The notes: generated by a model not told the origin, from the letters alone. DNA of 64,000 nt from Vermamoeba vermiformis (GCA_045837725.1 JBEWZL010000073.1:62001-126000), one strand, 5' to 3'; shown: positions 2,020 to 60,343, counted from the stretch's first letter. A program made the numbers and translations.

Positions 2020-3847
2020 ATGATCGACAAGTCTTTACACGCACTCGCTGCTTTTGAATTAATTCAGCGTCCCAAATTCCGATTAACTGATAATACGCTC
2101 AATATACTCGTGGCTGGTCCGCCCAATTCAGGTCCGTGAATAAGACTGCATATTTTCAGGCCTATATGGATGCATCCGAGAGACTCATTTAATTTCCTTT
2201 TTAGGCAAGTCCTTGCTGGTCTCCACGCTCGTCAACGAGCCCAACACACGTGCGCACAACGAACACGTGGTCTTCACGCGCAGTCTCGCACTCACTGGCG
2301 CACTGCACTCCAAGTCACGTGTTGGCAGAGAGCGCCATTTGACATTTTTTGACGTCAAAGCTGGTCGGAAAAAAGTTCTCCCGGTGCAACTGCTGACCTA
2401 CGCGGCACTGGTAAATATTGCTATTTTTGGAAACCAGTTCTGATCGTGCTCAGAGTGAATTGTTGCTGCTCGTGGTCAATGCGCACGAGTTGTCTACCAG
2501 GGCCGAGCAGTACGAACATTCAGTGAAATTTCTCCGCGCCCAGCTGTTGAGCACCATGTTCGCGATGAGTGCACGTGATGTCGTGGTGGCACTGAACCTG
2601 CACCACGCGAGTGACCTGCACGGTGCTGAAGGTACGTCGTGCGCTATATTTAGCTCGTGATTGCAGTGCTGAACTCGTGAGCAGAGTTCACTGAAGCGAG
2701 ACAGCAATTGACACGTGTCATCAGTGACACTTGTGACATGTATCCTGCGTGGTATCCTTCGTCTGACAGGCGGTGGCACGTGGTCTACGTCCCCGTCAAC
2801 ATCAAGCGCGGCTTCAATTTGACACCTGTCAATCAGAAGTTCTCGTGGTATCACGGCGCTGATCTGTTAACTGTATTGGCGGAAAATCAGCAGCGGAATT
2901 ACTACGACGAAGATATCTGGAGCAGACTCGTCCACTCTCCGCTTAATTATCCGATGATCTCCGCGATGAGGGTCAGCGGCATCGGGACAGTGGCAGGTGG
3001 CATAGTGCTGAGTAAGTCTGGACACGGTACGACACTCGATTTGACACGTTTGACAGGTGGCACTGTGCAGTACCGCGACGACTTGCTGATTTTTCCCTCG
3101 ACGAAATTTCCCGCTAATGTGCTGGGCATTGCGACCAACAGACAACAGCCGTCAGACGCCAAGCTCTGGCCTGGTATGATGGCACAGTATTGCCTAATTT
3201 GGACTGACACGTGCCAGGTGACGTTGCGGGGATTAATTTGAGATTCACATCGGTCAACGAACTGGCCCCCAAATATGGCTACCTGACGAGTCGCAGCTAT
3301 GTCACCGCTGAGGGCGTGGCAGTGGCTCAAAACAGCGTGCAAGTGTTTGCCTTCAGAGTCGCCGTTCATGAACTGACGCCGCGCAGGCTGGTCCTGCATC
3401 AGAGCTACGTGCTGTTCTACGGCACTGCGCGCATCGTCTGTATCTTGGCGTGGAGATTTCCTGCCGAGTCCAGTGAGCGGCCGAGCGATCACGTGATCAT
3501 GGTGCCACTCACGCACTACCCTGTCACGTGCTACGCACCCAGTGACACGCAGAAGAATTTGCACGGCAAAGTGCTGGTCGTGATCAACGGCACGTGCGCG
3601 GCACTGGGCAGAATTGATCGCGTGATGCAGGGCCCCAACCCCTACGCCGCACCGACACGCCAAGGTAACGTGATGAGTGCAGCAATCAGTGCTAATAGTG
3701 TTGTTAGACTACGAGGCACAGTACGCGCAGCTCTGCACGCACCCCGATCCGCTGTTTTCAGTGAACGAGCGAGCACTGCAAGAACAATTTGTGGAGCACG
3801 TGAAACACAGTGGCATTCAAGCGACACTGATCAACAATCGCGATTGA
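2020..3847 (+). CDS. Highly divergent eEF1A/HBS1/eRF3-family translational GTPase paralog (probable pseudo-GTPase), 5 exons
   Basis: Spliced product: LNILVAGPPNS|GKSLL (P-loop across intron 2132-2204), LTFFDVKAG, VVVALNLHH, VYVPVNIKRGFNLTPVNQKFSWYHGADLL (cf. eEF1A VPISGWHGDNM...PWYKGPTLL), RVSGIGTV and WPGDVAGINLR (domain II), GKVLVVINGTCAALGRI (domain III). Confidence 0.75.
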
Positions 3848-4034
3848 CGGTGCATCAGTGGGGGCAATAGAGTCGCTTTATTGTGCTACAAGTCCATCAA
3901 TCGGCACTGCTGCACCCCTCGGGCTGGTCAGTGTTGCTCCCGTCACTGGCGCGCTGCTCTGTGGTACTGCTGTAGCTGAGTCCTGAATAGCCTGTCTTCG
4001 TTGTCTGCCACCATAAAAGTGCTCGTTCAGTGAA

Positions 4035-7000
4035 TTACTTGACTATTTTTAGCATGCGGTACAGTGTGGAATCGGGTTCGACAGGTGTCACAAATTGACC
4101 TACGGCGTGTTTCAGTGAATTCACTGCGAATTCTGCGTGCACGCGGCACACTTCGTCTTCGTCGTGGGTCTGCGAATGACACGTGTCAAACAAAAGATGG
4201 CATCAAGTGTCAACTGCTTACCTGCACGTGCTTGAGAGTGCCATAAATAGTGCGCAGATGATGAGGCAGCACTTCAAACACTTCGTCGTCGAGACCTGTC
4301 AACAGCTGTGCGTACAGATTGATGACACCTGCGTGACACGTGTCAATCACTGACTCGTACGGTAATCACATGTCGCACTCACCTCGACGCACTTCGACTG
4401 TCGTGTCAGACTGCAGCAAGGACTGGGCACATGACACGATCTCTTCCAAATAAGGCAATAGCGCGTAGTGCAGCAGTTCGCACAGTTCAGCTAAATTAGA
4501 CAGTGCACTGGCACGCATCAGCGGATCTGGATCTCGACAGCCGGCTAAAAATATCGGCACCAGTGTGTTTGCTAAAGAATTGTTAGCAGAGTTGCAAAGA
4601 CTGAGGGCTGGAATTACCATATTTGGGCAATGCTTCACCGAGACGTTGTGCGATCTATTTACTAATTAGGAAATGCTTCTACAACCAGTCCGACCTACCT
4701 GCAAAAATGCCTCGCCTATTTTTAGCCGCACTTCCAGTCGCTTAGTGAGTTCCAGTTCAGTGAACGATTTGTTCTTTGAATGCGCGCCAATCACTTCTAT
4801 TTTAGGCTTCTGCTCATTGGCACCAGTCTGATATTCCAAAAATAGCTCTCTCATCAGCGGAACAATGGTGTCAAACTCGACATCGCCCAGGGCACTAAAT
4901 CCCCGAATAGCTCCGAGATACACGTAGCTGTCATCGTCCTGCAACTGCGTGCGGAATATCTCGATGACACGTGTCAAGTGCTGCATGGTGTGCGGGTCAC
5001 GTGCCAGCACCAATCTCCGCAGCGCAATTAATCCGTGCGCGCGCACTGGCAGCAGCGGGTCATTGAGATCTCGCAGCGCAGATTCAAGCGCGTTCACTGA
5101 ATTGTCGTTCACTGAACCAGTGCTGTCACTGGTCTTGGCCCACGAGATGTCGCGATTGACAATTTTGTCGTGCAGGGCAGTGGCACTCGAGGCCAGTGAC
5201 TCGCGCGGGAACTGACCAATCAGACGCAGCGGTGCCACCAAGTCGAACAAGAGCAATTCTTCCGCGCGATCGATCGTCCGACCGCTGTGCAGCATCGTGT
5301 CCAAAATAGTCAATGCAATTTGCAGCATCTCCTCGTCAATCACGTGCTGGTCGTCAGTCACGTGCTCGGCCATGCTGTCCACGCACTGATCGATCAGCAC
5401 GCGGAGAAATGTCAAGATCTGCACGACATTACTAAATATGGAATCTTTGAACTGCTCGCACATCAGTCCCAACAGTGACAGCAGAAAAGAATTCAATTCA
5501 CTGAACGGTAGTGTGTTAGAGCGGTCTTGACTAAATTAGGAATAGGATATCATACCCTGAGTCACGTGCCACTTTGAGCTGATCGATCAACAAGTGCAAT
5601 ATTTGCACAAAATAGTCGCCAATGAATGCAGACTTGTTATTGACGCCTGTCAACATGTCAATCACGCACTGGGCCTCGACGGAGTACTCGGCCAAGCTGT
5701 TTCACTGAATTAGAATTGTTGCAAACACTGCTGCACACGTACCCCGCTGACTCGACGCGCACGAGGCTGAACAGCGTGCCCTGGTCGGTGACTTGCGCCC
5801 GATAGCGATATTGCCATTTTAGGCAATCTCTCTTGCGCGGCAGATCGATCACGATGATGTGCAGCACACGTGTGAGTTCACTGGACTCGACGGCATTGGC
5901 CCACGTGACTAACATCTCTTTGACACGTGTCAACAGCTGTTCTGTGTGCGAGTCACGCTTTGACATGCGGTACAGTGCAGCGTACAGCCCAAATAAGGCA
6001 GGAAGCACTAGATTGGCGTCAGTTCAGTGAAAGATTACTATATTTGGACTGACCTGGCGTCACAATCTCGCACATGACAGGTGTCACGTGACGCGTCAAC
6101 AGTTCGTGCAGCTCAGTGACACTTTGGTCCAGATCAGCATTTGACACTATGACACGTGTCATACTCGTTGTCACGCTGTTCAGTGAAAGCAGACCACGTG
6201 CTTGCGTCACGTGACTGGTGTCTTGGTCGAACTGTTTCATGAATTCAGTGAACGGGTGCAATATCTCGCGCAGGAGATAGTTCATCACGTGCTCGCGGTG
6301 TTGTTGCAGCAGCAGTGTCACGACACTCACCGCGCAGGACGCGAAATGACACGCGTCAGGTCCGCGCACTGTCAACAGCTGTCGCACTTGCGGACAAATT
6401 TGTGCAAAGTATTCTGCGGCTGTCAACTGACGCGGGACTGCTGTCACAATGCGCGCTGCTTGCAAATAACTGGCGGGAGATACTAGCGGAGATATTAAGT
6501 CAGGGCAGTGCAGGCAATCAAACAATTACCATTTTTGGCAGTCAGAATCGGCGTCAGCACGCCAAACAGTCCACCAGGGCGGAGTAATAGGCGCGAGAGA
6601 ATTGTTCCGATCTGTCGCGTCACGTGTGGCACTGGAGGTGATTGCGCACTTGCCAATTTAAGTAATGCGAAGAGTTGTTCCGCGAGATCGGTGACTGACA
6701 CGTGCTCAATCAGATACTCGAGCTGTGCTGCAGACCACTGTTTGACACGTGTCATCTCTTCATCCGTGCAGTTTGTCACGTGCTCAGTGCCAGTCACGTG
6801 CATGACACCTGCTACCACGTCACTCAGCACCGCTCTGTGGATTTCACTCCACAATTCATCGGCGGAAATACTTTCAATGAACGCGCGAATCACGTGCAAC
6901 AGCGCTGCAAATGAAGGCTGTGCGGCGCTGAACGAGTCCCTGGCACTCTTGCCATATTTGGACAAGTGCGGCACGAGAGCGGTGCGGCAGAGCAGTTCAG

Positions 7001-7500
7001 CCAGTCGTTGGAGCATGTTCCGCGCTGTCAAACTCAGCACTGGCACGGAGGGGCTGACACCTGTCAGTCGGAGGTCAGTATCGAGTGGTGAGAGTCTTTT
7101 GACGCGTGTCAAACACAGACCTTGACGTGCGTGTACGATGCGAGCCACGTGCCGCACCAATTCGGCGCCAGTGACACTCAGCTGTGCAGTCCAGTGACAC
7201 GTGTCAACATTCAACACCGTCGAGGGCAGTGTTGGACACGTGTCATTGGCAAGCTCTGTAGCAGTCACTTCTAAATTAGGCAACAGAGCACGCACTTGAG
7301 CCACTCGTTCAGTGAAATGTTGCGCGTAGTCAGTGATGGGCACTAGCAGCGGAGTTAGTGAGAATAAGGCAGTGTGAATATATACAATATAAGCGAGAAT
7401 AGTGAAGAGAATAGGACATGTAACATATAGAGGGTGTATTATTAATCGTATAAGTGTGTCGAATAGTGCGGTGACGTCATTACGAGAGTTCCGCAACTAT
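4035..7500 (-). CDS. TANGO6: TANGO6 / Rtp1-family HEAT-repeat protein (multi-exon; start codon not resolved)
   Basis: LRDLNDPLLPVRAHGLIALRRL, LQDDDSYVYLGAIRG, RLKIGEA, DPDPLMRASALSNLAELC, LSRLLLRPGG and AAEYFAQICPQV motifs; stop at 4035. Confidence 0.85.
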
Positions 7501-13844: not shown

Positions 13845-16800
13845 ATGTCCTCGCTACGTGTGCGCAATCTCATTAAACGCTTCTCTGTGAATGAGACCGA
13901 ATCTAAGTTCAAATCTGAAGCGGAGAATCAGCCGAACAATACCAACAACAACACGCGCACCTCGAATAGTAATTCGAATAATAACAGCGCTATGGAGGCA
14001 TCGGACAGCGACTCGGATGTAACGGATCTGGAGCGAAAAATCGAATTATTAGCGCAAGAGAAGAACCAGGCGCGCATAGCAGTCACAACAGCGAATAATA
14101 ACAACAATAACAACAATAACAATATGACTAGTCGTAAGTATTTAATTAGAATCAGTCTGCGTTACACTGCGCGCAGATTTATTAATTATTGCGAGAATTC
14201 TACTTGGTGTTCTATCTCACCACTAGGTGCTCTAAATATGGTCATATTATACTTATTTGACCGAGTGTCAGCACTATTTATCTCGCGCCTTATAATTCTG
14301 AACAATTTTAAACTTTAATTTATCGTTAATGATCAATACTGGCCTATTAAAATACGGAGCTTAATGTCCTATATGCAACAGGTGCGCATCAGCCAGCTCA
14401 TGTCACGCCACTCGTGGAAGAGGGTGTGGATGTGGAGAGCTCGTCCGAAGAGACTAAAAATAGCGCAGCACCGCACGTGACTGATGTGCGTTCAGTGAAC
14501 GACACGTCAAATTATTTGACACCGAGTGAAGTGCGCGGTGACAACAATGATTGCAACAATTTATCAGTCAAACCAGCCCTCACCATAAATGGAAATATGA
14601 ACTATCTGACCTCCACGGAGGTCGGTGACAATGTCTATTACACACCACGTGATTCACAGCCCGAGGATAGCACGGACCATACTTCCAAATTAGGCAATAC
14701 AAACTATCTCACACCGCACGAGATCGAGGAGACACGCCAGAGCAGAAGATATTACCATAAATGGCAATCAGGGCGCCAGCACGAACTATCTGATGCCCGA
14801 TGAGATACAGCCGTCCAAAAATGGCAATGTTTATCACACCAGCACGAATTATCTGCTGCCTGGTGAAGTGTCACGTGACTCAGACAGTGAGAGCGAGGAT
14901 TTGACACCTGTCACACGTCAAAATGTCAATTACCTCACCAAGGACGAGGTCGATGAGCTCGAAGGTGACAGCGATCCAAAATTGGAAATTAAAATTGACC
15001 GTGCACCGAGCAACATGCCCAATAATGGCAATGCTGCGTCACGTGCCAGCACGACCATTGACCCGAACAATCGGCGCAGTGTGTTGTATCTCCAGCCCTC
15101 GGAGATTCAATTCTCCGACGACGATGACGACGAGCACGTGTTCGGTGCTGCAACACTGCACGTGCCAAAATTAGCACTGCCGACCGGCACTCAGCCTACA
15201 CCTGCCAAAAAAGGCAATGCCGGCTATTTTGAGAGTGCGCCGAGTCGCGGGTCCCTGCAGAGCGCGACATCGAGTGCGACACTGCCAGCGGTGACACCAC
15301 GCGTGACAGCACGTGGTCCGAACTACACTGGTCCGAGCACGCTGAGTTCACTGAATTCGGCACGTGACGAGCTCGAGGACAGCTTCAGCGACGACGAGAC
15401 TGACACGTGGAGCGACAAGGGCAGTGGCGCGCAGGTGAGTGGCAGTGTGCCAGCAGCGAGTGTGGTGCCGAGTGACAGCAGCGACATGTACTGGAACAGC
15501 GAGTACCAGCACGTGCTCGCGATGAGTGAGGGCGTCGAGAAGTATCAGCGGCTCAGTCGACTCGCACAGGACTTTGTGTACGCGGCACAGGTAAGTCACG
15601 TGCTTGTATGTGGTGCGGATCACTGATTGACACGTGTCACACGCAGACCTACGGCAAGATCATCATCACGGAGCGCTACTTGCCCACGCACCGCAAGACC
15701 ATCAAGAACGTGCAGTCGATGGGCGGTGTGGCTGGCGGTACGTGATAATTGCCTAATATAGCAAGTGCGCTGACTGACACGTGCCAGGTGACAAGTACAA
15801 AGTGCAGGGCATTCTGTTCAAGTTCGCGGTGGACACCAATCTCAAAGACAAGGGCTACGTCTCCTTCGACTACTGGATGTACGGCGGATATCGCCAGTCG
15901 GACCGGTACGCGGCCAAAGCTGCCGGTCACGAGCTCAGTAAGCTATTTTTAGCGCAATATGATCGTCACAGCCATTTGTGGTTGTATCTCGCGGTAGTGA
16001 CTCACCAATTCATGAACAGAGGGCCTGATCAGCTACTACAATGCCACTGTGCCAGGGCTGCACTATCCGCTGATGGCACTCATTGACTACCGGTACGGTC
16101 TATTTCCTTATTAGGCAATGTGTCACTCACAAACCTCCACAGTGGCTTCCGTTTGATTGCCATGTCCCTCGTGCCAGTCACTTCCCAGACTCTCAAATAT
16201 GGCAGTGCTGATGCTGGGAAAACAATCCACACGGACATTCCCGAACTGAATCTAAAAATGGAAACGGTGGCACAACGCCTCAATCTCAAGAAACACCGCG
16301 CCGGGGACAAAGAGATTGCGGGCCCGAGTGACATTGAGGGACATTGTTCCGCCGACAACAAGTTCTACGTGCTAGACTTTGCCAGAGTTTTTCCGCCCGA
16401 GGCACCGCTCAAACCGTATGATTCCTAAAATGGTAAATGCGTGAACTAACGTCCCTATTTTTAGCCTTCGTCGCGGTGATCGACGCGTGTACTATCAGCT
16501 GCTGCGCGCGGAATTAGTGCGGAAAAACCCAGTGGCACTGAACAGCGACGTGTTCACCAACTTCAACACGCACAATCAGGAACAGGACGAGCGCGAGGTC
16601 GAAGAGGCCACGCTGCACTTGTTCAACCGCGTGATTCCAGGTCTGTCACGTGATGCTGTCGTGTTTCACTGAATCAACTAACGGCCTTTGTCATTGCTCA
16701 GATTTTGCAGCCAAAATAGGCAAAATGTCCAAAGTACAACTGCAAAAGACGTCCATCATTGAAGAGATGCATCGCGAGGGTGTAAGGAGCTAAATATAGA

Positions 16801-19800: not shown

Positions 19801-21077
19801 GGCGCTGGAACACTTGGCGCTGTGGCACACTGTGAGCGACAAGTCTTTGCAACAATTGTCGAAGTGTCTCAATTTGAAGCACCTGCAACTGATCAACAAT
19901 CACGTGATCAGCGACAAGGCCCTGGCAAAATTGTTGAAGCGGTTGGACTTGGTGTCACTGAACATTGACGGGTGTCATTCAGTGAACAGCAACAAGACCT
20001 TCGCTGCGACGATTGGACCACTCACGTGCGAGGCATTGACTGGTCACGTGCACTTGACGGCACTCTCAATCAGGGCAGTGGTTGGCATCACGGATGACAC
20101 TTTGACACCTGTCATCGAGGCGTGTCCGTCGCTCGTGGTGCTCATGGCCGATGATTGTCCAAATATAGGCAAACAGACCGTGCACGCGTTCGGTGACACT
20201 TTGACACCTGTCAAAGCGCTGTCTCTGCGCCGCACCACTGGCTGGAGTGACGTGGATGACACGGCCCTGACAAAGCTATTTTTAGCTTTCGACAAACCGC
20301 GCGCTGATTGGTCGGAGATTGCCACCAAGAAAAATGAGCGCAAAGGTCGCGCTGCCACCATCGCACGCAGTTCACTGAAAAAGAAGAACAGACCTGCGCT
20401 AAAAATAGCCGCTAGTCCCGGCAGTGCCGTTCAGTTCGCATCTGGCGCACCAAATATGGAAATCCTCGATTTGTACCGCTGCAACAAGCTGACCGATGCC
20501 TCGATCTCGAAGATAGCTGCGCATGACCAAATATGGCAATCACTGCGCGTGTTGGACTTGAGCTACTGCGCGCAGATCACTGACCAGGGCCTCATGCAGC
20601 TGTCAAAGTGCAGTCTGCTCGAAGATCTGCGGTAAGTCTTTGCAACTATTTTTGTCCCACCAAAACCAGTCACTGAACCGTGCTATTTTTAGTCTCGAAG
20701 GCTGCACCTCAGTGAGCTACGTGAGTCTGAACGGCGTGGTCGAGCAGTGCTTGCGTTTGACACGTGTCAATGTGTCAGGCTGCGTGGTGATTGATCGCAC
20801 GGTCACGCTGCTCGCCACCACACATCCTAATTTGGAAGTGCTGCAGCTCAGCGGCTGTCAGGACATTACCGATCAGTCGCTGTCCATATTAGGCAAGTGC
20901 TGTCCGCAGCTGAAAGTGCTGCACATCCGCGGCAATGCGAGTGTGACAGATGTCGCGCTGCTGGCACTAGTCACGTGCTGCACGGCACTGCTGTCACTCG
21001 ACATGGCGGACTGCAAGAACATCAGCGTGCTGCACGACCTCATCAAACTGCTGCCGGGCTGTCACTTTGACACTTGA
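13845..21077 (+). CDS. Large Clu-domain protein with N-terminal NYLTPxEV repeats, TPR-like helices and C-terminal FBXL/AMN1-type leucine-rich repeats; apparent frameshift near 14740
   Basis: Clu motifs LAQDFVYAA, GGVAGGDKY..QGILFKFA, AAGHEL, PLMALIDYRGFRL, LKYGSADAG, DIEGH...FYVLDFARVFPP, EMHREGINIRHLG; repeated LxxLxLxxCxxITD LRRs from about 19560 to 21050. Confidence 0.85.
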
Positions 21078-21251
21078 GCACCCCTCTGTAACGTCCTCAT
21101 GTAACATAAGTCACGTGCGCAACTTGTACATATTTGGAAATAATAACCAGTAAATTTACGAAATTTCACGACTCAACCCACACAGCGCTGAATTTGACTC
21201 AGTCAGTGCAATCACACATTAGTGCTCGCAACCACTACACTTCATCGCCCT

Positions 21252-24456: not shown

Positions 24457-24590
24457 AAAGGCTCAGCCAGCCTGGAGGTTGGCCAGGCCAAGTTGGCCAG
24501 TGTGGCGAGCCAAGCCGAGGGGGATGGCCGGTCCGGCTCGGCTCGGCTATCCGGAGCGTTTCGGCTATCCGGAAGCAGGTAGTGGAAATG

Positions 24591-26020: not shown

Positions 26021-26118
26021 TTGCCTCAGCAATCAAGAAAGATCCAGCCCCCTGCCAACCACAAGCTTTTTGTGTATGTGTTCTGTGCAGAACTCAGCAA
26101 AGTCTAATTTATTACAGG

Positions 26119-28341: not shown

Positions 28342-30786
<2,445 letters not shown>

Positions 30787-40057: not shown

Positions 40058-40333
40058 TTTAAAACGTGACTGGTGGTGAAGTGTTGCGTTTGATTGATTA
40101 AAATTTAACCGCAAGTTTCAATTTTTTTTTTTGACCTGCCAATAAAAATCATAAATTCAACTCGAATTTGGAGCTCCCGCGCGAGATACAGTTTAAAAAG
40201 CTATTTTTGGCCTTTGCTCGTCTGTCATTCGCATCACAACCGTTCAACCTACCGACACATTTGATGTCCGAGCGGAATTATTATCACTTGCAACAACACA
40301 TCCACAGAAAATTTTAAAATTAAAACCACGAGC

Positions 40334-48440: not shown

Positions 48441-51400
48441 ATGTCGTGGCTCAAACAACTCTTCAGCAACAGACGCAGCACGGCCTCGTCGTCCACGCGC
48501 TCATCGGGCTCAGAACACAGCACGGGCTCGAATAACAAACCTTCGCTCGACTCGGATGACACCAAAGAAATTCAACCGCCGTCACCCAACCACTACTTCG
48601 AGTATGTAGCACACTATATATACAATGCTGGATTATTGTCATAGTATCGATCACATTACTGCTCGTGCGGATCCGTTTTTCAAATAATTATTTTATCGTG
48701 CGCTGTAATGGCATTGTAATTGCCTATTAATCGCGTCACAGTAATCAATATACAATAATGATATGAATAATGATGTTCATACAGCGTTAAATGCTTGAAA
48801 ATTTCGGATCTCACCTTTAAATGTTCATTTAATCATTTAAGCTCGCTGTATTTAATGTAATTAATGCTCACATCACGTTTATACGATTTATTTCTGTCAT
48901 TTTGACAATTAACGGTGAGAGATCTGACAGATCTAACCTTCTCGCTGAAAGATTCTTTACTGAACGAGCACCCTTATTGCCACTATATTGTGAGGAACAG
49001 CGCGCTAATGCCGTTCTATTTTTAGATACGAATACGATGCAGTCGCGCTTCTAGAACACTGGCAGAAGTTTCACAGTGATCTGAGCGTGCAGTCATTGCA
49101 AGAATTTATCGGAGAATATCGCCGACAAGAGGAACTGCTCGGCACAAAAGAGGAATTTCACGCGCAGCGACAGTTGATTGGCCTCAGCTTGCCTTATTTG
49201 GAACCCCGCTTGCTCGCAGCACTCGAGCAGGGCACGCACCAGCACGATGCGCACACGAGCACGTGGGTGGCCCTGGTAGAGATCCTCAGCCGCGCCTCGT
49301 ACAACATTGCCGTGCTGTCGAGTGAGTCGTGTCGGCGGCTGATTGGTCAGTTAATTGGCTATTTTCGCGCGCTCATCGCAGACCTGCGCGGCGATGCCAA
49401 AGATGGCAATCGGACCTCGCTGCTGGGCAGTCATCGATCACGTGAGGATCTTGCTGTTAATGAACCAGCGGCGGAACTCGATGCGACGAGTCTGTACCGT
49501 TCACTGAATGGTTTGCAGGCCCTGGTGACGACCTTCAGTCAGCTGAGCAGCCCTGGGCACGCGTGGCGCCATCAGTACCAGATTGAAGCGCTCAAACTGC
49601 AGCTCAATGTGCGCGGCATGAGTGCGCTGATTGACCTCAACAAACAGACGCTGCTCAGCAATGACGTCATCAACTTGCTCGTCGGTACGTACGGCACTTG
49701 CCTTATTTGGTAATATCTCGCTCACTCATGCGCAGATCTGTTGCGTGTCGTACACGGTCTGACAGCGGAACAACTCAACGGATCACGTGTCACCTACGAG
49801 CTGACCATGAGTGCGCTGAATCTGATTGGTGGCCTGGTGCACGACTGTCACAACGCACAACCTTTTTTGGACAAATCTCCCGCACTGTTCGAACTGCTCG
49901 CCGATCATCTCGGCTGGCCCAGTGACGTGTATGTGACACGTGTCAATGCGGGTACTTTGCCATTGTTTATTGACGTGCTATTTTTAGCTGCCCTCGATGG
50001 AAGCTCACTGCAGACACGCAAGTGACACCTGTCATATCCGAGCACGATCTGTTCATGTTTGAACTGCTCACCATTCAAGTGTTCACTGAACTCAGGTACG
50101 CGCCTATAAATAGCACACTCGTTCACTGAACTAACACTGTCACGTGCCAGCATTCTCAGCTCGACGAACATGCGGCGGTGGCGCACGACAGGTGGATTTC
50201 AGCGCGTGATTGATTGGGTGCTCTGGACTGCTGTCACTTTCCAAAAAAAGCTATCCGAACCCACACCTGACTCGATATGGCAAGTGGCATCGTTCACGCC
50301 GTACCTGTCGCGCTTGACACTCGGCAAACACGTGACGAGTCAAGGAATGACACGTGTCACTTCAGACGATGAAATTTCACCGCGCGAGACAGCCAACAGT
50401 GCCCTGACTCCGACACCTCCGCGTCCGTGGCACATTTGCAATGTTCCGCTGGCCATGATCTTTCAAGTGCTGTACTGTCTCTGTGTGGGAGGCCTCCAAG
50501 CTAATTATAGCCACCAGACCAACACGGCCAATTCTCCGAATTTAAATTTGCAGGTGTTGAATATATTGATGGATCTGTTCAACAGCGACATTCGACAGAC
50601 GCCGCAGAACATTGTCGCGCGCGAGTGGCTGAGTGACACGTGTCCCGAGTGTCAACTGCTGGTCTTGGACTTTGTGTCGCGCTTGGCGGTAGATTTCCCA
50701 GCTGTCAAACCGCAGCTCTTGGCGTGCAATCTGTGGCCCACACTCAGCTCGCAGTACTTCTTTGCACCGCTGCTCTGGCACGTGACTGATGCCACGGCGC
50801 GCGGGCTAAATATAGAACACCCAATCACCAAGAACATCACGGGCACGTATCTATTTTTGGAACACCGGCGCTACCTGTTTCAACTGATCGAATTCTTGGC
50901 GACACTTGGTGATAGCTGTCACTTTGAGTGCGCCACGCTGCTCGTAAGTACAACGACATTTCCTTATTTGGCAATGTACTAACCACACACCAGACACTTT
51001 GGCAGCAGTGCTACGTGCAGTTCTACAAGAGTTATTCCGCCGTGTTGACAGCACAGCAGACGGCCCTGAGTCAGGCCATGGACAGCAGTGACCACCACGT
51101 GACTTCGCGGAAATTATCTTTGCAGCCATTCTTCAACGCGACACTCGTGCTCGAGTCACGTGATCACAAACCAGATCTCGCGGCGTATCTCGAGGCCTAT
51201 TATTGGCTGTCACATTTGCTGTCGCGTTTGCTGTCACAAAGCCGCGGAGAAATGACGCGTCAAATACTGCTGCACTCCATTCAGCTAAATATAGGCACAG
51301 GGCAGGTGCTGGTGACGTCATCGACTGCTGTGCCCGAGTCTTCAGTGAAACACGTGCCCTTGACGCTGCCACTGCTCTGCAACACGGGTCTGCTGTTGAC

Positions 51401-54400
51401 AGGTGTCAATGCGTGTCAACCAGAGATCAGCGAGCACGACCGCCAAGATCGTCACGTGACACGTCAACACGTGCTCGATCTGATCGGTGCGGTGCTGGGA
51501 ATGACATCCAGCGCCACTCCCAGCGTGACACTGGCCCTGGTCGATGACGCGCTGCTCGAGCTCATGTTCGGACTGCTCCGCGAGTCTGCCATGCGACGCT
51601 GGAGCTATAATTGGCTCATCTCAGCTCTCGGAACAGTGCCGAGCAGTGCCGAGGACAAAAATCAGCTGCTAAAATTAGCTACAAAATATCTCAACTATTT
51701 GTGCGCGCTGAGATTGGAGCTCAAAGACGAAGAGCAGCTGTTGCTATTTTTGCTGCAGGGTGAGTGAGGCTATAAATAGAACGGCGCAGTACTCATCACG
51801 TGACAGGACTGCGCATGGTGGCAGGAGGGCGGAACAATAAATCTCAACAAGATCTCCTGCGCGAGGCCGGCGCGTTTGTGAAGCTGTCCAACATGTTGAC
51901 AGGTGTCAAAGCGGTGGATCGACAGCGATTGGACGAATTGAGCAGTCACGTGATTGGCTGTTTGACAGCACTGATGGCCAACAACGCGGAAAATAAGGAA
52001 TTCTTTTCCAAGTCGATTGGTGTCACGCAGTTCAAGACGCTATTATTAGAAGCATACGACAGCAAACTCACCGCACGTGTGCTGAATGGATTGCTACTTA
52101 TGGTAAGTGCAGTGTTGCCGATGCCAGTCTGACACTTGCCTAATTTAGATGACGGACGGCCAAGATCTGGACGATGATTCGCCGAGCAGTCTGATTCAGA
52201 ACAGTTCTATAGCTTTGCTGTTATTCTCGCTCACACCTAATTGGGCGGATGAGGAGCAGGTGACGCTGTACGATCACGTGATTCGCTTGGTGTCCAAACA
52301 CGACATCAATCAGTCCATTCTCGCCAACACCAATCTCATCTATCAGCTGCTCGATCTCCTGCCCCAGATCACTGCTGGACCCGTGCAAGGTATGCGCGGT
52401 GTATTCACTGACACGTGACCTGACAATGGATGTCTATTTTTAGAACGCGCGCTGTCCCTGGTGGCACTGCTGTCCAAACAAGGCATCACCGTGCGCGAGT
52501 TGAAAAAGCTGTTCACGCTGTTCAAACCTGTCGCTGATCGGCGCGTAAGTCACTCTTTGACACGTGTCACCCAGTGCTGATCTATTTTTAGTCTCCGCTC
52601 ACCCCCGTGCTCGTGCAAGTGCTCGAAGCAGTGGCCCGTGCCAGCGCCGATGTGATCAGTGCCTCGTCACGTGATCTCGAGAACAGCACGGTGGCACTCA
52701 CTAATAATAGCACCACGCAGTTCACGGCCAGTGCAGGCTCGAGCTCGTTCTTTGAATTCAACGGCCGACACAGTGCTGTCACCGTGCTGTCAACGTGTCA
52801 GTGGCCGCTGGGGCTGGATGACAGCGACAAGCCCGCGTGTTCGGTGGCACTGTGGCTGCGCGCGACCTCGTGGACGGACCCCTCGCTGGCCCCGCTCTAC
52901 TTGCCGCGCCTGTGCTCGCTGCTCAAGTACGACGGTGGCACTGGTGTCGAGATCTATTTTCGGCCCTCGTGGGACACCTCCACTGCGCACCTCGTGGTAT
53001 CTTTGCAGCCATCACGTGATCAGGCCCCCGTGCTCGTGGAGTTCACGGCCCATCCGCTGTTGGAGCGCGAGTGGTATCACGTGACATTGACTTATATGGT
53101 CACCTCGCGCAAGAACACTGAACTGCACTTGTACGTCAACGGCCGTCACGTGCAGCACGAGACTGTGCGCGCCCCGTACATCTTCAAGGTGAGTGCTGTC
53201 CTAATTAGGCAATCACGTGCTGACCTCTCGCGCAGGGCTTGGACTGTGTGCGCATCGGTTCGAATGCGGAAGTGTACCGCACTGCCAGCACGATATACCG
53301 CGAATCGAGTTTTTACGGACAGATGGCCAATGTCTACTGGTTCAGCGACGAACTCACCGCACCGCACGTGGCAGCTATTTATAGACTCGGACCCAACTAC
53401 ATGGCCAACTTCCAGGGCGACAGTGCTGCGGAGGTAGCGGAACAACTCGATCTTTCAGTGAACCAGGCCATGCAGCTGTTGAGCGAACTGCGCGCCATGG
53501 TGCACGTGGCATTCATGGCACAGGCCTGCGTGCAGCTGTCACCAGATGTCAAACTCAAGTCCGTGCCAGCACTCATTGCAAATGCCCCGTTGACACCTGT
53601 CAATGAGCGTGCCGTGTCAGAAGCCGATTCGCTCTGTTACGACTGCAGTCCTGAGTCACTGCCACGTGCTCGCCGTCACGCCGTGCTCACAGGTCAGTGT
53701 TTGACACGTGTCACTCGCATATATATCATTGCAAGTGTTTCTAATTCTCCGCGTGACAGGTGTCAGTGTCATCACGCGCTCGATTCTGCACGACATTGTC
53801 AACTGTCTCGGAGGTGTCTCCGCACTGTTGCCACTGTTCCAACAGCTCGATCTCGCGGAGGATTCCGATCACGTGACTGCACCGCTCTACACCTTCGCCG
53901 CGGACATTGTGCGCGTGATTGCCTGGCTCTTGGTGGCACCTCCGCGCTCGGAGAAAACAGCTAATAATAGCACCGCGGACGAGTGGCACCGCCAGCACCA
54001 AATTAAGTTCTATCACCAGGGCGGCTTCCCAATCGTGTCGTATCTCCTGCTGAGATCGTCGCCGCAGAATCTCACCATTGAGCTGCTCGATGCTTTGCAA
54101 CTATTTCTCAAAGAATACAAACAGCCCAACACACGTGTTGGCATGTTGATCGGTACGATGAAATTTCATTGCAATCTCCCCGCTAATCTCCGCACAGAAC
54201 CACTCGAAGACGATCTGTTTTTGCACTTGTTCTTCAATTTCCATTTATGGATATACGCCGAGTACGCCGTTCAGAAGCACCTGTTGACACGTGTCTTGCC
54301 GTTCTACGTGCACAAAATCAAACGTCTGCGCACCGTGTTTGGCGTGCAGCCATTTTTAGACGCACTGCGGCTGTACTACTGGACAGCACGTGACAGTCAC

Positions 54401-57400
54401 TCCATGGCCGTGGAGCCCGTGCACCACCCCGTGACTGGCACCTGTGTCGGACGCAGACCCGATGATCATCACGTGATCGATCTCCAGCGCGATCTCGTGG
54501 CCCTGGTCGAACTCACCGTGCAGGACGGAATAACTGTCGATGAGACACGTGCTCTGCTGTGAGTATTCGGCCCTCGTTCAGTGAATGGTGCGATGCTAAT
54601 ATTTCCTAATTAGGCAATTCATGATTGACTGCAAAGAGAACGGCCAGCTCATTTTAGTGCTGAAAATGATGGTGCGGCTATTATTAGCACCAAATCAGAC
54701 GGGCACTTATCTACTGAACGCGCTGTTGACACTTGGTGGCACTGACACGCTGCTGCTATTATTAGACAACCCAAACAAGTCCGTGCAGGTCTTGGTGCTG
54801 ATGCTGATCGATCTCATTATAGAAAATGTCAAATCGACACCTGCACGAAGTGTCACTGAGGGACAGGACAGTCCTGCCTTAAATAGAAATCAGTCTGGAC
54901 CCCTCGCAATCATTGCCACAAATTCGAGCAAAGACAGTGCCGTGCTGACCGACTCTTTGGCGCGCTTGCCCCCGATATTTCCTATTAAGGCAATCACCAA
55001 CACGAGCACTGCCTCACCCGTGTCCACGCCCACATTGACATCGAGTGACAGCGCGGTGGCACTCACTGCGGAGAAATCTCCGATGCAGATCAGCACCCCC
55101 GTGATGAAATCTCGTTCTCGGAGATTGTTCCGCCAGAAATCAGCCTCGCGCGTGAAGATCAGTCAGATGATGGCACGTGCTGTCAGTTTGAGCGAAGACA
55201 TGTCGCCGTTGACAGCTATTTTAACACATCACCTCACGGGACACGTGGATCAGCCGAACAACACCAATGTAGCTAATAATAGCGATGAGTCACGTGACGA
55301 CAGTGCCGAGGGAGATCTCGCGCGCAGTGCATCGAGCACGCGACACGAACTGTACAACATTCTGTTCGCCATGCTCGTTGGCAAGTGGCACGAGACGTCA
55401 AGTGTCACGGTGACAGGTGTCAATGACGATCTTGCGGAGCCACACGTGGGCAAGGTACGTGCTGCGGTTATTTATGGCACCAAGATCTAATTTTAGCCGC
55501 AGATCTTCGTGGACGACAAAGTGTCCCTGACGCACTTTCCTGTTTTGGAAGTGCTGTTCGGTCTGGTCCAATCACACGCCAGCACGACACATCTGTTGCT
55601 GCAAGATCTCGCGCTCTTGTTGCAGCGGCACGACAACTGCCACGCCTTCAAACGACTCGCTGGCTGGCACGTGCACCTGCTCTCCTTGCTGTTCGACGGT
55701 ATGTGCGCTATTGCCTAATTAGTACATGCCTCGCTAACCCTCGCGGTGACAGCGGACAGCGTGACATTCGACATTGTGTGTCAGATCTACAAGTGGCTGC
55801 TGCTCGATGCGCTGCAGTACGACAAGGACGGCTGGACACTGCTGTACGAGACCGAGGCCTACTGCACGCACTTCAACGACAAGGGCGTCGATGCACCGCG
55901 GTTCATGAACCAGTTGATCCGCTCGGTGGTGGCAGAGCTGTGCAAGGAGTCGTGGAACTACAACAAGACGACCAAAGACACCTCGCGCATGAATGTGCTG
56001 CGCGGCCTGCACGAGCGCGACAGTGCGCTGAAGAACAACTTGATGCTGTTCATCTTGTTCGTCGAGGAGTACCTCTACTACCGCTTGGATGGCACTGCGG
56101 AGGACAGCAACGAGCGCACTTCGGATCACGTGACGGACGAGGACGACGAGGAACAACAGCGGAACAATTCGCTCGATGAAGACAAGTTCCACAACTATCA
56201 CGTGACCATGATCATTCGCGCACGTGGTCCCGAGGGTCACGAGTACGACGAGGAGTACAACACCGCACGTGATGTGGCACGTGGCCGCATTTGGCGCGAT
56301 GTGGAGATAGCAATGAATCTCGTCGATCTCGTGATGAATCTCAATCTCGCCAAGATCATTCAAATCTCCGTGCCACAGCCCAATTCTTCTGGCACACTCA
56401 AGCGCGTAAGTGCTAATTATAGCTCCTGCACGTCATTGCTAACGAGCTAAATTTAGACCATGGTGCGTGTGCGTGAAGGTGGTCTGCGCCAGCTCGTGCT
56501 GCGATTGGTCAGTGCGTGTCTGTACGAGCACTCGGAGACTGACAGCGGAGATCACGCGAGATCAGTGCGAGATTTCCTCGTGCGCACCATCCCGCAGCTG
56601 CACGCCATCATGCGCAAGAAGGCGAGCACTGAAGAGGTGCACTACGTAGCATTGCACTTGTTGCGCGCACTGAAATTGCGGCACCTGGCAGCCACGTGGC
56701 AGGAAATCTCGGGCACGAGTCCCGTGAATGGCGCGAGTCCAGCGGCGCAACTGATCAGCGACACGATCAAAGAGACCAAAGAGAGTGCGGTGCTGAGCAA
56801 GTCAGCCCTGGTGCGCGATCACGGCGATCTGTTGGTGATGATCCACTGGCTGCAAGATCTGCTCGTCAATCACGTCAAGTCGCCGCTCATTGCCTCGTTC
56901 AAGAAAGACAATCTCCCGCACGAGCAGCAGCGCAAAGTCAAAGATGTGGTGGCACAGTTGACGCAGGGCTATCACGCCAATGGTCCGCTCAATCTCCAGC
57001 CCGGAGCTGACTCCGGTCACGTGTTCAAAATCAGCAGCAGCACCTATCAATCTCCGCTGCTATCTCCGACATTCATTGCAACAATGTTGACGCTCATCCA
57101 GGGCAGCACGGCCTCGACCTCGCTGACGTATCTCGAAGCATATCTCGCGTCACGTGCTGCACCGCTGACCACGCACGAGATTGACATGGCGCAGTCCATT
57201 CTCAAGACACGTGTCAAATGGCTGGCCGTGTCACAGCGGCAGATTGACGAGTACTTGACGCGGCAAAATCTGAACATCATGGAGACCACGCGGCGCATTG
57301 AGCACGTGAAGACAACGCTGTTCAGTGAATCGCAGTTCGAACAGCGCATTCATGAACTGAAGATGTCACTCAAAGATGCCTACGCGCGCATTGCCAATCA

Positions 57401-60343
57401 GTGGAAGCGCATTCTCCGTTCACTGAACAACGAGCGCGGGCCGTGGTGTCCGCAACAGCCGTCACGTGTCTATTGGAAGCTCGACAAGACGGAGAATTCG
57501 CTGCGCATGCGACTGAAGCTGAAGCGGAATTACAACTTCAACGACCACCGCGATGCCGTGCAGCACAAAGAGGCACGTGATTCGAGTGCTATAAATAGCA
57601 AGGGACTCGACGACTACGAGCGGTTGAGACTGCTGAAATTGCCCGTGCGACGAGGTAACTGTCGACTATTTTAAGACTGCCACAGATATGTACTAATTTG
57701 GCAATAGACTTCATGGAGCGCTACGAAGAGGAGGAAATGCCCGATGATCAGATCGTCACCGCGGACACGAGCACCAATCTCGGAGCGAGTTCCGAGATTC
57801 AGCTCATCACGCGCAAGAGTTCTTCCGCCGCACAACAGACACCAGCCCCTGCCCCCGCCCCCTCGTACCGCATTGTGATGCGCGTGTCCGCGGAGTGGAT
57901 CACACCGTCCAATGTCTACCAGGGCCTGCTCGCTCTCGTGCTGGTCAGTGCGGACAACAGCTGTCACGTGACATTCACTGAAGATCTCGCGGAGAATGCT
58001 CCGAACACAGCACGTGCGCGCAAGATGAAGCACTGGGCCGTGCACGACATCCGCGGCATGCACATGCGCCGTTACCTTTTAAGGCGAAGTGCAGTGGAGC
58101 TGTTCATGAACGACCAGACAAACAATCTGTTCAATCTGTCCAAGAAAGACTGTCAACGGCTGTACCAGAAGATCATCGGTCTCAAGCCACTGTCGCTGCT
58201 GTCCATCACGGAGATGAAGTTGACGCCCGACCAGATCTTGTTGGCGAGTGGGCTGTGCGACAAGTGGCGCCACCGACACATCAGCAACTTCGAGTACTTG
58301 ATGCACCTCAACACCATTGCTGGCAGAACGTACAACGACCTCACGCAGTACCCTGTGTTCCCCTGGGTGCTGCAGGACTACACCAGTCACGTGCTCGATT
58401 TGGACAATCCACGTGTCTATCGAGATCTGAGCAAGCCCATTGGTGCCATCAATGCCGAGCGCTTGAAGTACTTCCAAGACCGCTACGAGCAGTGGGAGTC
58501 GATGCAAGACCAGGGCAGTGTGCCACCCTTCCACTACGGCAGTCACTACTCGAGTGCGGGGGTCGTGCTCTATTATCTCATTCGCGTTGAGCCCTTCACC
58601 ACGCTGCACATTCAGCTGCAGGGCGGCAAGTTCGATCACACTGACCGCTTGTTCCACTCGATCGAACAGACCTGGCACAGCTGCACGCACGACACGAGTG
58701 ACGTCAAGGAACTCATTCCCGAATTCTTTTATTTCCCCGAATTCCTCACCAATCACAACTCGTTTGACTTTGGCACCAAGCAGAATGGCATCAAGATGAA
58801 TGACGTCCTCTTGCCACCCTGGGCCAACAACAGTCCCGAGCAGTTCATTCGTCTGCATCGCCGCGCCCTCGAGTCCGAATACGTCTCACTTCATCTGCAC
58901 AAGTGGATCGATCTCGTCTTTGGTTATTTGCAGCGCGGTCATCCAGCGCGCGAGGCCAACAACGTGTTCTACTATCTGACCTACGAAGGTGCCGTGGATC
59001 TCGACGAAATTACAGATCCAGTGCTCAAAGTCTCCACGCGCGATCAAATTGCACACTTCGGTCAAACACCCTCGCAACTGCTCAAAGCAGAGCCGCACGT
59101 GGCCCGATTCCCACTGACCACTGATCTGTCCAATCACTACCGCTCTATATTTGTGCGCCCTGACATGCTGGACATTTATCGTATAAACCTCGAGCCCGTC
59201 AATCCCTCGGGCACCAATACGAGCACCAGCACCGAACTGAGTGGCGCGATAGTGTACATGTCCTGCGCGATGATGAATGACCGAGTGATTGCAGTGGACG
59301 AGTACGGCTTGATTCGCATCTATCGGCTGATACGACCTCTCACCTGGCAACACGTCGAGTCCAATCACCCGTTCAAGTACTTGCCCAATTACAGACAACG
59401 ACTCGATCACCACGCTACTGACGGAGATCAGTCGATGACACTTGACACGTCACGCCACGGTCAGCACTTGACCACACGGCACAGCACACATCAATTTGCC
59501 ATCAGCCCCGACGGTCGCACGCTCTACTCTGCGGCACACTGGGACGGCACTGCGAAGGTGGTAGCCATTGACTCGCACAGTCTGAGCAGTGTCGCTGGTG
59601 GCAGCAGTTCACAGACAGCACTCAGTCTCAGCCCCGTGGGACTCGTGCACTCCAAGCCTCCGCTCACTTGTCTGGCCTTGGCAGAGGACGGAGGTCTGTT
59701 GGTGACTGGCTGCGCTGACACAACACTCACTGTGTGGACTGTGCACGGCCCTGGCCTTACTGCCGCGAACCCTGCCTCCAATGTCATTTCTCCGCAACGC
59801 AACACGGCGAAATCTCCGCTACTGCCTGTGACTCTTCATCCGCGTCACGTGCTCTACGGCCACGACCGTGAAATTACAGCCGTGGCCATCAGTCGCGATC
59901 TCGATGTGTGCCTCAGTGGCAGTCGTGATGGCACCTGTCTCGTGCACACTCTCAAGCAGGGTCAATACGTCAGGGCTCTGCAGTTGCCGCACACCAATGC
60001 CTCAATTGACATGATTGCTATCTGTGCGACCACAGGACACTTCGTCATGTACTCCAAGTCCAGCTTGACGCTCTATCTCTACACCATCAACGGCAAGCTG
60101 TTGGCCCAGACTGACGCCAACGACCACTTGAATCACATGGTGGTGACCAAGGACGGCGAGTACTTGATCAGCGGTGGTCGCAAGGGTACGGTGGTTATTC
60201 GCACGCTGTTCACATTGCAGACAGTGCACAAGTTCCAAGTCGATGCTGCAGTCTGTTCATTGGCCCTCACCGCTGAAGAGAAACATCTGCTCGTAGGACT
60301 TGACAACGGCAAAATGATCTTGTTCTACCCTCGCGGCTTGTAA
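48441..60343 (+). CDS. BEACH-domain protein (neurobeachin/LRBA/Lvs-like): ARM region, ConA-like domain, PH, BEACH, WD40
   Basis: WYHVTL...LYVNG (ConA-like), [96 protein letters not shown]40 repeats. Confidence 0.95.

Follow-up and report, generated by a model that had tools for sequence, protein, structure and literature searches.

Short palindromic words iterated through gene bodies were analyzed in a stretch of Vermamoeba vermiformis DNA of 64 kb (herein referred to as the window), which is gene-dense, has a GC content of 0.495, and provides evidence from approximately 18 genes and one orthologous locus. These words are a DNA-level feature, present in exons and introns and independent of reading frame and strand. 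The constraint on them acts on duplex DNA, is specific to a dozen words, and is limited to certain transcription units; it overrides codon bias and persists while neutral intron sites saturate. An earlier reading made from the sequence alone (the sequence-only reading) had described five families of palindromes: TGACA-NN-TGTCA, KCACGTGM, TTCASTGAA, TTNCC-W6-GGNAA, and CTA-W4-TAG (W is A or T; S, C or G; K, G or T; M, A or C; N, any base). All five patterns were found where that reading had placed them and far over chance. In total, the window contains 40 copies of TGACANNTGTCA, 103 of KCACGTGM, 200 of CACGTG, 38 of TTCASTGAA, 12 of TTNCC-W6-GGNAA, 48 of CC-W6-GG, and 40 of CTA-W4-TAG.

CACGTG is the most over-represented hexamer of all, with 200 copies against 15.3 expected from base composition. 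Expected counts were also obtained from Markov models of orders 1, 3, and 5, with 60 simulated windows per order. For CACGTG these models give 30.1, 94.2, and 199.9 copies, respectively, the last value following by construction from the reproduction of hexamers at order 5. The long words are 10 to 25 times more frequent than expected at order 5. Thus, TGACASSTGTCA was observed 40 times (0.0, 0.2, and 1.7 expected at orders 1, 3, and 5), TTCASTGAA 38 times (0.9, 1.5, and 4.0), CC-W6-GG 48 times (1.6, 2.6, and 3.0), and CTA-W4-TAG 40 times (0.4, 1.1, and 2.5), and for the 12 copies of TTNCC-W6-GGNAA approximately none were expected at any of the three orders. A disappearance of the enrichment under a low-order Markov model, which had been named as fatal to the idea, was not seen for the long words, their excess being retained through order 5.

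The five families are not independent, as the sequence-only reading had taken them to be, and reduce to approximately three plus minor words. The centre of TGACA-NN-TGTCA is CG in 21 of the 40 copies, GG in 10, CC in 9, and never GC; since all centres are CG, GG, or CC, this word is an E-box (CACGTG or CACCTG) with TGA and TCA flanks. The remaining E-boxes favour the form G-N-CACGTG-N-C; of the 200 copies, 109 have G at position -2 and 92 have C at position +2. TCACGTGA and ACACGTGT are present in 32 copies each. CC-W6-GG and CTA-W4-TAG form one family, C[CT]-W6-[AG]G, because they interconvert between orthologues. This family, herein referred to as MADS-type, has 133 copies; its core is often extended to TTGCC-W6-GGCAA, and flank logos give a long form, ATTGCC-W6-GGCAAT. 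TTCA-S-TGAA is frequently lengthened to GTTCASTGAAC. The minor dyads include TTCATGAA and GAAATTTC (11 copies each, against 1.3 expected at order 3), GATCGATC (10 against 2.0), TGACGTCA (8 against 2.5), and GTGC-N-GCAC (17 copies), together with CGCGCG (53 copies) and GCGCGC (63 copies). No consensus longer than 2-5 nucleotides (nt) was found outside the words in the flank logos. Some non-palindromic words are iterated as well, with no obvious role: TGGTGGCAC/GTGCCACCA (13 copies), CAGTGCCAC and its complement (12), and GTGACAGCA and its complement (17).

The forms of the words presumably correspond to known binding sites, namely those of the E-box/G-box, cAMP-response element, SRF, MEF2, and Mcm1 types and the heat-shock-element-like TTCnnGAA and GAAnnTTC. 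We regard the E-box, the MADS-type words CC-W6-GG and CTA-W4-TAG, including TTNCC-W6-GGNAA, and TGACGTCA as matches to consensus sites of dimeric transcription factors. The E-box/G-box assignment refers to the CACGTG core with dyad flanks (200 copies), and the MADS-type assignment to the 48, 40, and 12 copies counted for its three forms, whose cores interconvert at orthologous sites. Additionally, TGACAG-S-TGTCA is taken here to be a MEIS/TGIF-type dimer site, and TTTCCTAATTAGGCAA, a 16-nt long-form MADS-type dyad found in a single copy at the 3' end of a predicted intron (54602..54617), a site similar to the yeast P(PAL).

Words in coding sequence were analyzed in 40 open reading frames (ORFs; 30,015 nt) picked by a codon log-likelihood trained on Pfam-supported exons, and were compared with 300 synonymous-codon shuffles, in which every protein sequence is preserved along with its codon counts. 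CACGTG was found 135 times in the ORFs, against 50.5±4.7 in the synonymous shuffles and 18.1 when codon order was shuffled. The synonymous shuffles give 0.4 copies of TGACASSTGTCA (18 observed), 1.6 of TTCASTGAA (26 observed), 2.2 of CC-W6-GG (28 observed), and 0.7 of CTA-W4-TAG (24 observed). Thus, within these ORFs, a codon- and amino-acid-preserving shuffle, a control that had been proposed for the whole genome, leaves an excess for all five words.

Every frame free of a stop codon or a Cys or Trp codon is used, and the peptide differs from frame to frame. Of 18 ORF copies of TGACASSTGTCA, 17 lie in frame 1, read as xTG ACA SST GTC A, and frame 0 is avoided because the word would then begin with TGA. 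TTCASTGAA, encoding FSE, FTE, xSVN, or xSLK, was found in frame 0 (11 copies) and frame 2 (15 copies); it is missing from frame 1, in which it would contain TGA. The ORF copies of CACGTG are distributed over frames 0, 1, and 2 as 66, 55, and 14. Rare codons are concentrated inside the words, which cover only 7.2% of codons and yet hold 23 of the 43 TTA, 55 of the 124 CGT, and 21 of the 58 CTA codons. The effect reaches the protein: the His-Val dipeptide was found 71 times against 25.3 expected (2.8-fold) and Val-His 27 times, and in several His-Val pairs of the BEACH exon the His is conserved among homologues, whereas the Val after it is missing from them. Three exonic copies illustrate these features. 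TGACACGTGTCA at 18707..18718 is read TTG ACA CGT GTC ACT (L-T-R-V-T) and is identical in the related species. CTATTATTAG at 17086..17095 is read CTA TTA TTA G (Leu-Leu-Leu), with the two rarest Leu codons, each of which accounts for 3% of Leu codons. CCTTTTAAGG at 58075..58084 lies within the conserved YLLR of the BEACH domain, encoded by TAC CTT TTA AGG with three rare codons.

Introns are short (43-73 nt in the contigs of run X5) and bounded by GT..AG. The 56 introns analyzed (2,990 nt), comprising 13 RNA-supported ones, from the 15 joints listed among 43, and 43 predicted ones, contain 21 copies of CACGTG (7.0 per kb; 1.7 copies expected under an order-1 null), 11 of TGACASSTGTCA (0.0 expected), 26 of C[CT]-W6-[AG]G (0.25 expected), and 6 of TTCASTGAA (0.02 expected). 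Of the 56 introns, 39 contain at least one word, as do 8 of the 13 with RNA support. Bases inside words make up 18.0% of intron nucleotides, in comparison with 7.2% of ORF nucleotides. The occurrence of the words in exons and introns, on either strand, and in different frames, as first described, is therefore borne out by the frame, strand, and intron counts.

Two metagenome contigs of a related species, L001 (3,347 nt) and L002 (4,830 nt), are orthologous to parts of the window: L001 to 17884-21073 (81.8% nucleotide identity over 3,166 columns) and L002 to 14777-17576 (80.5% over 2,722 columns). The same lexicon is present in both, with 14 and 10 copies of CACGTG, 4 and 2 of TGACASSTGTCA, and 8 and 5 of CTA-W4-TAG in L001 and L002, respectively. 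Measured against windows of the same length in the alignment, TGACASSTGTCA is identical in the relative in 5 of 6 cases (background 0.164; P=6e-4), CACGTG in 16 of 27 (0.362; P=0.012), CTA-W4-TAG in 6 of 11 (0.215; P=0.016), and C[CT]-W6-[AG]G in 13 of 35 (0.215; P=0.025). Among codons for the same amino acid, 83 of 96 are identical inside words and 725 of 1019 outside them (Fisher P=0.0011). In the four alignable introns, identical columns number 44 of 56 in words and 54 of 136 elsewhere. The clearest footprints in introns are surrounded by scrambled sequence. In a predicted 56-nt intron of the plus strand (15591..15646), TGACACGTGTCA at 15628-15639 is perfectly kept in L002, the remaining intron having diverged; L002 also retains, in a shifted position, an E-box close to the 5' end. 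In an RNA-supported 61-nt intron of the same strand (20632..20692), the sole conserved blocks are the 5' splice site and CTATTTTTAG at 20683-20692, which forms the 3' end.

At some orthologous sites one word is replaced by another. CC-W6-GG switches to CTA-W4-TAG, the centre of TTCA-S-TGAA flips, and at four sites, including 17387..17392, CACGTG is replaced by CGCGCG in the relative through symmetric double changes that keep the palindrome; TGGCCA is replaced by TCGCGA once. Among palindromic hexamers with two differences, 5 of 28 are still palindromic, against 1/15 expected (P=0.036), and 5 of 24 in the reverse direction (P=0.019). In control non-palindromic hexamers, the frequency of mirrored double changes is 0.229, against 0.2 by chance. 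No indels were found at words in the orthologue alignment.

The distribution of words over the window was determined with a lexicon of CACGTG, TGACA(GG/CC)TGTCA, TTCA-S-TGAA, C[CT]-W6-[AG]G, TTCATGAA, GAAATTTC, and TGACGTCA, scored over positions 2020..60343; 420 word instances were counted in the window. Word density is bimodal. The richest genes, with 9-16 words per kb, are an unnamed gene at 2.0-3.9 kb (plus strand), the RTP1/TANGO6-like gene at 4000..7500 (minus strand; Pfam RTP1_C1, E=1.1e-29), the CLU-LRR gene at 14000..21100 (plus strand; Pfam), of which 14777-21073 aligns to L002 and L001, a gene at 21.4-23.1 kb, CDT1 at 36-38.3 kb (plus strand; Pfam; 11.7 per kb), and the N-terminal part of the BEACH gene. 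The RTP1/TANGO6-like gene is the densest, its 3,501 nt containing 56 words (16.0 per kb), and CLU-LRR has 89 words (12.5 per kb). The BEACH gene occupies 49-60.3 kb on the plus strand (Pfam DUF4704, Beach, and NBCH_WD40); its N-terminal part, 49000..57650, contains 109 words (12.6 per kb) and its conserved C-terminal exon, 57651-60350, contains 11 (4.1 per kb). This 894-amino-acid exon has its best named relatives, with only 40-44% identity, in Amoebozoa (Physarum, Heterostelium, Acytostelium, and Pelomyxa). On the basis of this one protein, a placement in Amoebozoa is probable, the named proteins offering no close relative. ALG11 (32-34 kb, minus strand; Pfam; 7.5 per kb) and Omp85/Sam50 (42.2-43.9 kb, plus strand; Pfam) have 7.5-8.2 words per kb. 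Densities of 3-5 per kb were found, besides that BEACH exon, in MetRS (28.3-30.6 kb, minus strand; Pfam), an ABC ATPase (10.5-13.1 kb, minus strand; Pfam), a ThiF-type E1 (46.3-47.8 kb, minus strand; Pfam), and an unnamed, well-covered gene at 8.1-10.25 kb (plus strand).

The remaining genes are at chance level (0-1.7 per kb): the GT34 glycosyltransferase (485-1270, minus strand; Pfam), a Brix gene (~35 kb, minus strand; a weak match below the Pfam cut-off; 1.4 per kb), G-alpha (~39 kb, minus strand; Pfam; 0.9 per kb), a protein kinase (39500..41300, minus strand; Pfam Pkinase; one word in 1,801 nt, 0.6 per kb, an unmarked gene), and a gene at 44.5-45.7 kb. Five intergenic spans have 0 to 1.7 words per kb, and the unannotated tail, 60351-64000, has 1.4. 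Thus, the words avoid AT-rich intergenic and promoter DNA, the usual place of regulatory sites; with 0-1.7 per kb in the intergenic spans against 12-16 in rich gene bodies, the placement of the lexicon, MADS-type words included, is opposite to that of ordinary regulatory sites. GC content alone fails as a cause, because the GT34 gene, with a GC of 0.53, has no words in 786 nt. The presence of genes without words also argues against any uniform process on all DNA or on all transcribed DNA. In the ABC and MetRS genes the exons are word-poor and the introns word-rich, which fits a filter by protein constraint; the kinase and Brix genes are poor throughout. The earlier list of dense genes holds for TANGO6, Clu-LRR, Cdt1, ALG11, and BEACH, and that of sparse genes for G-alpha and the kinase. 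The eEF1A paralog and the PPase also listed were not found in the window, and the gene at 10.5-13.1 kb is the ABC ATPase with its word-poor exons.

The transposon island was described as nearly free of words, and this agrees with the counts. It is an inverted-repeat element of ~3.8 kb (23870..27708) with arms at 23870-24156 and 27447-27708, each of ~290 nt and 80-85% complementary, and a body at 24157-27446. Only 2 words were found in the 4,051 nt of 23700-27750 (0.5 per kb). The ratio of observed to expected CpG is 0.47 in the element, against 1.01-1.09 in genes and intergenic DNA, and CC/GG is not depleted there (0.93-0.94, against 0.51-0.71 in host DNA). Together these values suggest CpG methylation or decay confined to the element, or a recent arrival. 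A 284-amino-acid ORF of the element (25981-26835) has no Pfam match.

As an explanation, we tentatively favour selection on double-stranded DNA words that serve as sites for dimeric binding proteins and mark gene bodies. Under this selection, a small dyad-symmetric lexicon would be maintained on duplex DNA through many transcription units of this lineage. The lexicon would comprise the E-box CACGTG/CACCTG with G-N-...-N-C and TGA...TCA flanks, the MADS-type C[C/T]-W6-[A/G]G, and TTCA-S-TGAA, with TTCATGAA, GAAATTTC, TGACGTCA, and CGCGCG as minor words. In this reading, purifying pressure keeps the words at synonymous sites and in introns, bending both codon choice and amino-acid sequence; protein constraint and stop codons decide which frames and genes carry words, and introns, being free, carry them most densely. 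The most likely readers would be homodimeric DNA-binding proteins present in abundance, with bHLH/bZIP-like and MADS-like proteins among them. Their occupancy may mark or organise gene bodies, keeping them apart from CpG-decayed transposons or ordering chromatin, as distinct from classical promoter control. A stronger form of the idea, which we regard as possible but doubtful on this evidence, is a gene-body code: exact words held by selection approximately every 90 bp in a subset of genes would label those genes as opposed to transposons and unmarked genes, for instance so as to keep the labelled genes free of CpG methylation or silencing or to organise their chromatin.

Several observations weigh against selection on protein-read words. 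A bias of repair or conversion that is specific to sequence would conserve word positions just as well. The species comparison covers a single locus of ~5.9 kb, so the P values for conservation are modest, and CC-W6-GG (3 of 14), TTCASTGAA (2 of 5), and CGCGCG/GCGCGC (5 of 18) are not significant alone. In reads of a 90-95% identical strain (X21 and X23), for which 40 of 547 differences were listed, none of the 27 listed within 19980-20730 falls at a fixed word position; 7.7% would be expected there, and the shortfall lacks significance (P=0.11). Three of the 27 fall at degenerate word centres. In the C-terminal exon of BEACH, the conservation of word-encoded residues is not below that of the rest (0.486 against 0.410, P=0.38); the idea that words occur only at poorly conserved residues is thus unsupported in this exon, and the words also exploit conserved peptides via codon choice. 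No clear periodicity of spacing was found among 440 sites, whose gaps have a median of 59 nt and a mean of 87 nt (the gene-dense segments analyzed have up to approximately 11 sites per kb); of 60 bins of 10 bp, a few reach z ~3, and nucleosome-scale or helical spacing was not accepted on that ground. With intergenic and promoter DNA and the G-alpha, kinase, Brix, and GT34 genes at chance, any marking role would not be universal. Finally, the ORF set is heuristic and may include intron read-through, and the ORFs and 43 of the 56 introns are predictions.

The first alternative to selection on protein-read words, which we consider unlikely, is a molecular drive without host benefit, in which a sequence-specific bias of repair or gene conversion restores near-matches. 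Such a drive may be a very-short-patch-like repair tied to DNA methyltransferases, as discussed for the cyanobacterial palindrome HIP1 (GCGATCGC); HIP1 is described as being in 15- to 300-fold excess, conserved in evolution, and a target of recognition by methyltransferases. The sharpness of the words is as a drive would have it. TGACACGTGTCA has 21 perfect copies, 19 copies with a GG or CC centre, approximately 11 other one-mismatch neighbours, and no CpG-to-TpG forms, and in the ORFs the CpG-to-TpG derivatives CATGTG and CACATG were found 2 and 3 times against 135 copies of CACGTG. Overriding codon preference and changing amino acids is likewise what a drive would do, and restoring repair would also conserve positions, as noted above. 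On the other hand, a dozen words with degenerate centres would require many specificities, and the switching from word to word at one site is not predicted by a single restoring enzyme. The process would furthermore have to be gene-selective, with intergenic DNA and genes of similar GC, such as GT34, at chance. The word-free element was considered as an argument in this connection and dropped: its arms differ by only 15-20%, neutral intron sites are near saturation between the two species, and the element is too young for its lack of words to be telling.

An RNA-level function, in which the words would act in pre-mRNA through splicing or through small hairpins or duplexes and hence be present in transcription units only, is improbable, although the words are confined to gene spans, are densest in introns, and have a stereotyped placement there. 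The TGACA word begins 13-20 nt ahead of the 3' end of the intron in 10 of 15 cases, and its TGAC could be a branch point. Among the 26 intronic MADS-type words, 17 have their start 7-21 nt from the 5' end, and 9 end at the 3' splice site itself. ACTGAC, which is branch-point-like, is sense-biased in introns only (10 against 1), and within introns the same holds for TGACACCTGTCA and CTATTTTTAG (4 against 0 each). The words seem to share space with splice signals in these tiny introns, and they resemble branch-point and 3' splice-site signals in that intronic TGAC and CTAAT have the spacing of a branch point and many CTA-W4-TAG copies terminate at the splice site. Unlike splice signals, most copies are exonic, on either strand, and distant from splice sites, running through single exons of 2 to 2.7 kb. 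An identity with splice signals, that is, a fixed distance from intron ends and the sense strand only, holds for a minority of words. For CTA-W4-TAG, some intronic copies are the intron's own 3' end, but 24 copies, like 18 of TGACASSTGTCA, lie within ORFs, so splice signals explain only a part of the family described in the sequence-only reading.

Tests of strand and folding point away from RNA. In the ORFs, no sense/antisense bias was found for non-palindromic variant pairs: TTCAGTGAA and TTCACTGAA are present 15 and 11 times, GTCACGTGC and GCACGTGAC 11 and 12 times, the GG and CC centres 4 times each, and CGCGTG and CACGCG 24 and 23 times. Variants compatible with G.U pairing are not preferred over those with C.A (CT-W6-GG 10, CC-W6-AG 19). 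The folding of the 56 introns is no more stable than that of dinucleotide shuffles (mean z -0.01), and single words fold weakly (-0.1 to -6 kcal/mol). The strand symmetry in ORFs and the ordinary folding of introns indicate double-stranded DNA, not RNA, as the level of recognition.

A generic palindrome-making mutation, through template switching or hairpin-directed correction of quasi-palindromes in transcribed DNA, would explain the symmetric double changes that keep palindromes (CACGTG to CGCGCG four times, TGGCCA to TCGCGA once) and the exact arms and free centres of the dyads. It is very improbable, and is largely refuted by the lack of a class-wide excess of palindromes. Palindromic 8-mers number 451 in total, against 352-408 expected at Markov orders 3-5, and 209 against 266 expected without the top 25 words. 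Among dyads with 4-nt arms and gaps of 0-10, a few arms dominate (TCAC, ACAC, TTCA, GACA, TGAC, and GCTA), and mirrored changes in the control hexamers are near the chance frequency, as given above. The observation is thus of a specific vocabulary, not of general palindrome-making.

A by-product of codon usage, amino-acid composition, or dinucleotide bias can hardly account for the words. Codons of the E-box are preferred ones (CAC and GTG make up 85% and 67% of the His and Val codons, respectively), the dinucleotide odds are skewed, with CA/TG (1.31) and GC (1.26) high and TA (0.67) and CC/GG (0.68-0.70) low, and an order-3 Markov model gives approximately half of CACGTG, 94 of 200. For the long words this explanation is refuted: their excess survives synonymous and codon-order shuffles and Markov orders 1-5, the rarest codons are used, introns are denser than exons, and synonymous sites are conserved. 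Beside these values, CC/GG falls to 0.51-0.56 in word-rich genes, and some palindromic hexamers are nearly absent from the window: CCCGGG and GTATAC were not found, and TCTAGA, GCTAGC, and CCTAGG were found once each, against ~15 expected. Footprints of mobile-element or introner-type insertions carrying the words, suggested by introns packed with the same few words, have the slightest chance of all, given that the consensus ends 2-5 nt past the words, that exonic copies are embedded in conserved coding sequence which aligns without indels to the related species and to distant homologues, and that introns share words, not overall sequence.

Among known systems, HIP1 had been cited as a precedent, and the analogy is apt as a description, both being iterated palindromes in coding DNA, conserved and frame-biased. 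HIP1 is likewise a short palindrome, hyper-abundant both within and outside coding DNA, that influences the usage of codons and peptides and still has an open function. The order-5 excess here is at the level of at least 10-fold expected of such a palindrome (40 against 1.7, 48 against 3.0, 40 against 2.5, and, for TTCASTGAA, 38 against 4.0), and the words are present in coding DNA with a frame bias and are conserved over background in the relative. Unlike the HIP1 case, GCGATCGC has only 2 copies in the 64 kb, and about a dozen unrelated words take the place of one octamer; the host is a eukaryote with introns, the words are factor-site-like, and they occupy only certain transcription units, with intergenic DNA at chance.

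The DNA uptake sequences (USS and DUS) of Pasteurellaceae and Neisseriaceae are exact 9-12-mers in excess by thousands of copies; those that lie within genes bias the peptide content. They differ in being non-palindromic and in having a known uptake receptor and recombination in competent bacteria; we know of nothing comparable for an amoeba. Duons and the sites of yeast general regulatory factors (Cbf1 at TCACGTGA, Mcm1 at CC-W6-GG) are examples of binding inside coding DNA that can constrain codons. The same words are present here (32 copies of TCACGTGA, 48 of CC-W6-GG, and one of TTTCCTAATTAGGCAA), at a density orders of magnitude higher (~1 per 90 bp in the gene-dense segments) and with promoters avoided. 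The periodic A/T clusters (PATCs) of C. elegans germline genes are a gene-body, mainly intronic feature thought to license expression against silencing. PATCs are degenerate, 10-bp periodic, and intronic, whereas the words described here are exact dyads that are also exonic and without periodicity. In the literature searched, which excluded supplementary files and subscription journals, no such system was found described in a eukaryote, and the exact 12-mer matched only two unrelated papers on Ebola.

If proteins read the words, a second message, concentrated in marked genes and with visible effects on synonymous sites, rare codons, and amino acids, would occupy approximately 7% of the bases in ORFs and 18% of those in introns of this window, an overlap of codes far heavier than anything described for eukaryotic exons. 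It would amount to a new information layer overlapping the genetic code in a eukaryote and to a testable counterpart of HIP1. With factor-site-like words, word-free genes, and a related species at hand, the system is tractable for the question of why genomes iterate short palindromes. Models of codon usage, of the ratio of nonsynonymous to synonymous substitution (dN/dS), and of gene structure for this lineage would be biased unless the words are modelled.

An effect of this kind was seen in gene prediction, in which ORF-based strand calls were misled because palindromes keep both strands open over long stretches. Long open frames overlap on both strands at 2400-3900 and 6490-7130; for example, 6495-7496 on the minus strand (333 amino acids) overlaps 6499-7125 on the plus strand (208 amino acids). 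At 2453-3708, the longest ORF lies on the minus strand, and the X5 introns of this segment have GT..AG ends on the plus strand. Antisense frames are probably kept open in part by the palindromic words.

The sequence is also present in independent data. For 2001-22000, 24 of 41 pieces of the X5 contigs and 64 of 119 of the water metagenome X6 match with at least 99% identity. In the RNA runs X21 and X23, most reads on the same segment are only 90-95% identical (114 of 138 and 287 of 321, respectively), and the species label, which these runs share with the likely source run, probably covers diverged strains or cryptic species. The X5 contigs also contain a GC..AG intron on the minus strand (12990-13045), a skip of 227 nt with CA..AC ends (8328/8556; 8329-8555), and a skip of 604 nt with GC..AG ends (9356/9961; 9357-9960); splicing of an alternative or non-canonical kind, or else joins made during assembly, may lie behind these.

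Because the 14-mer TTGACACGTGTCAA is present only twice in the window, scanning viral contigs for it had little power to detect amoeba DNA. The carriers are tailed phages in which the remaining amoeba lexicon is absent, and a viral link was rejected as unrelated. Ten tailed-phage contigs (L015, L024, L036, L052, L057, L061, L063, L065, L073, and L075) contain 3-9 copies of TTGACACGTGTCAA each, often as TTTGACACGTGTCAAA. L075 encodes Baseplate_J, P2 gpU, and gpI-like proteins and tail fibres. In these phages, TTGACACGTGTCAA is located at almost every gene junction, a few nucleotides upstream of the next start codon.

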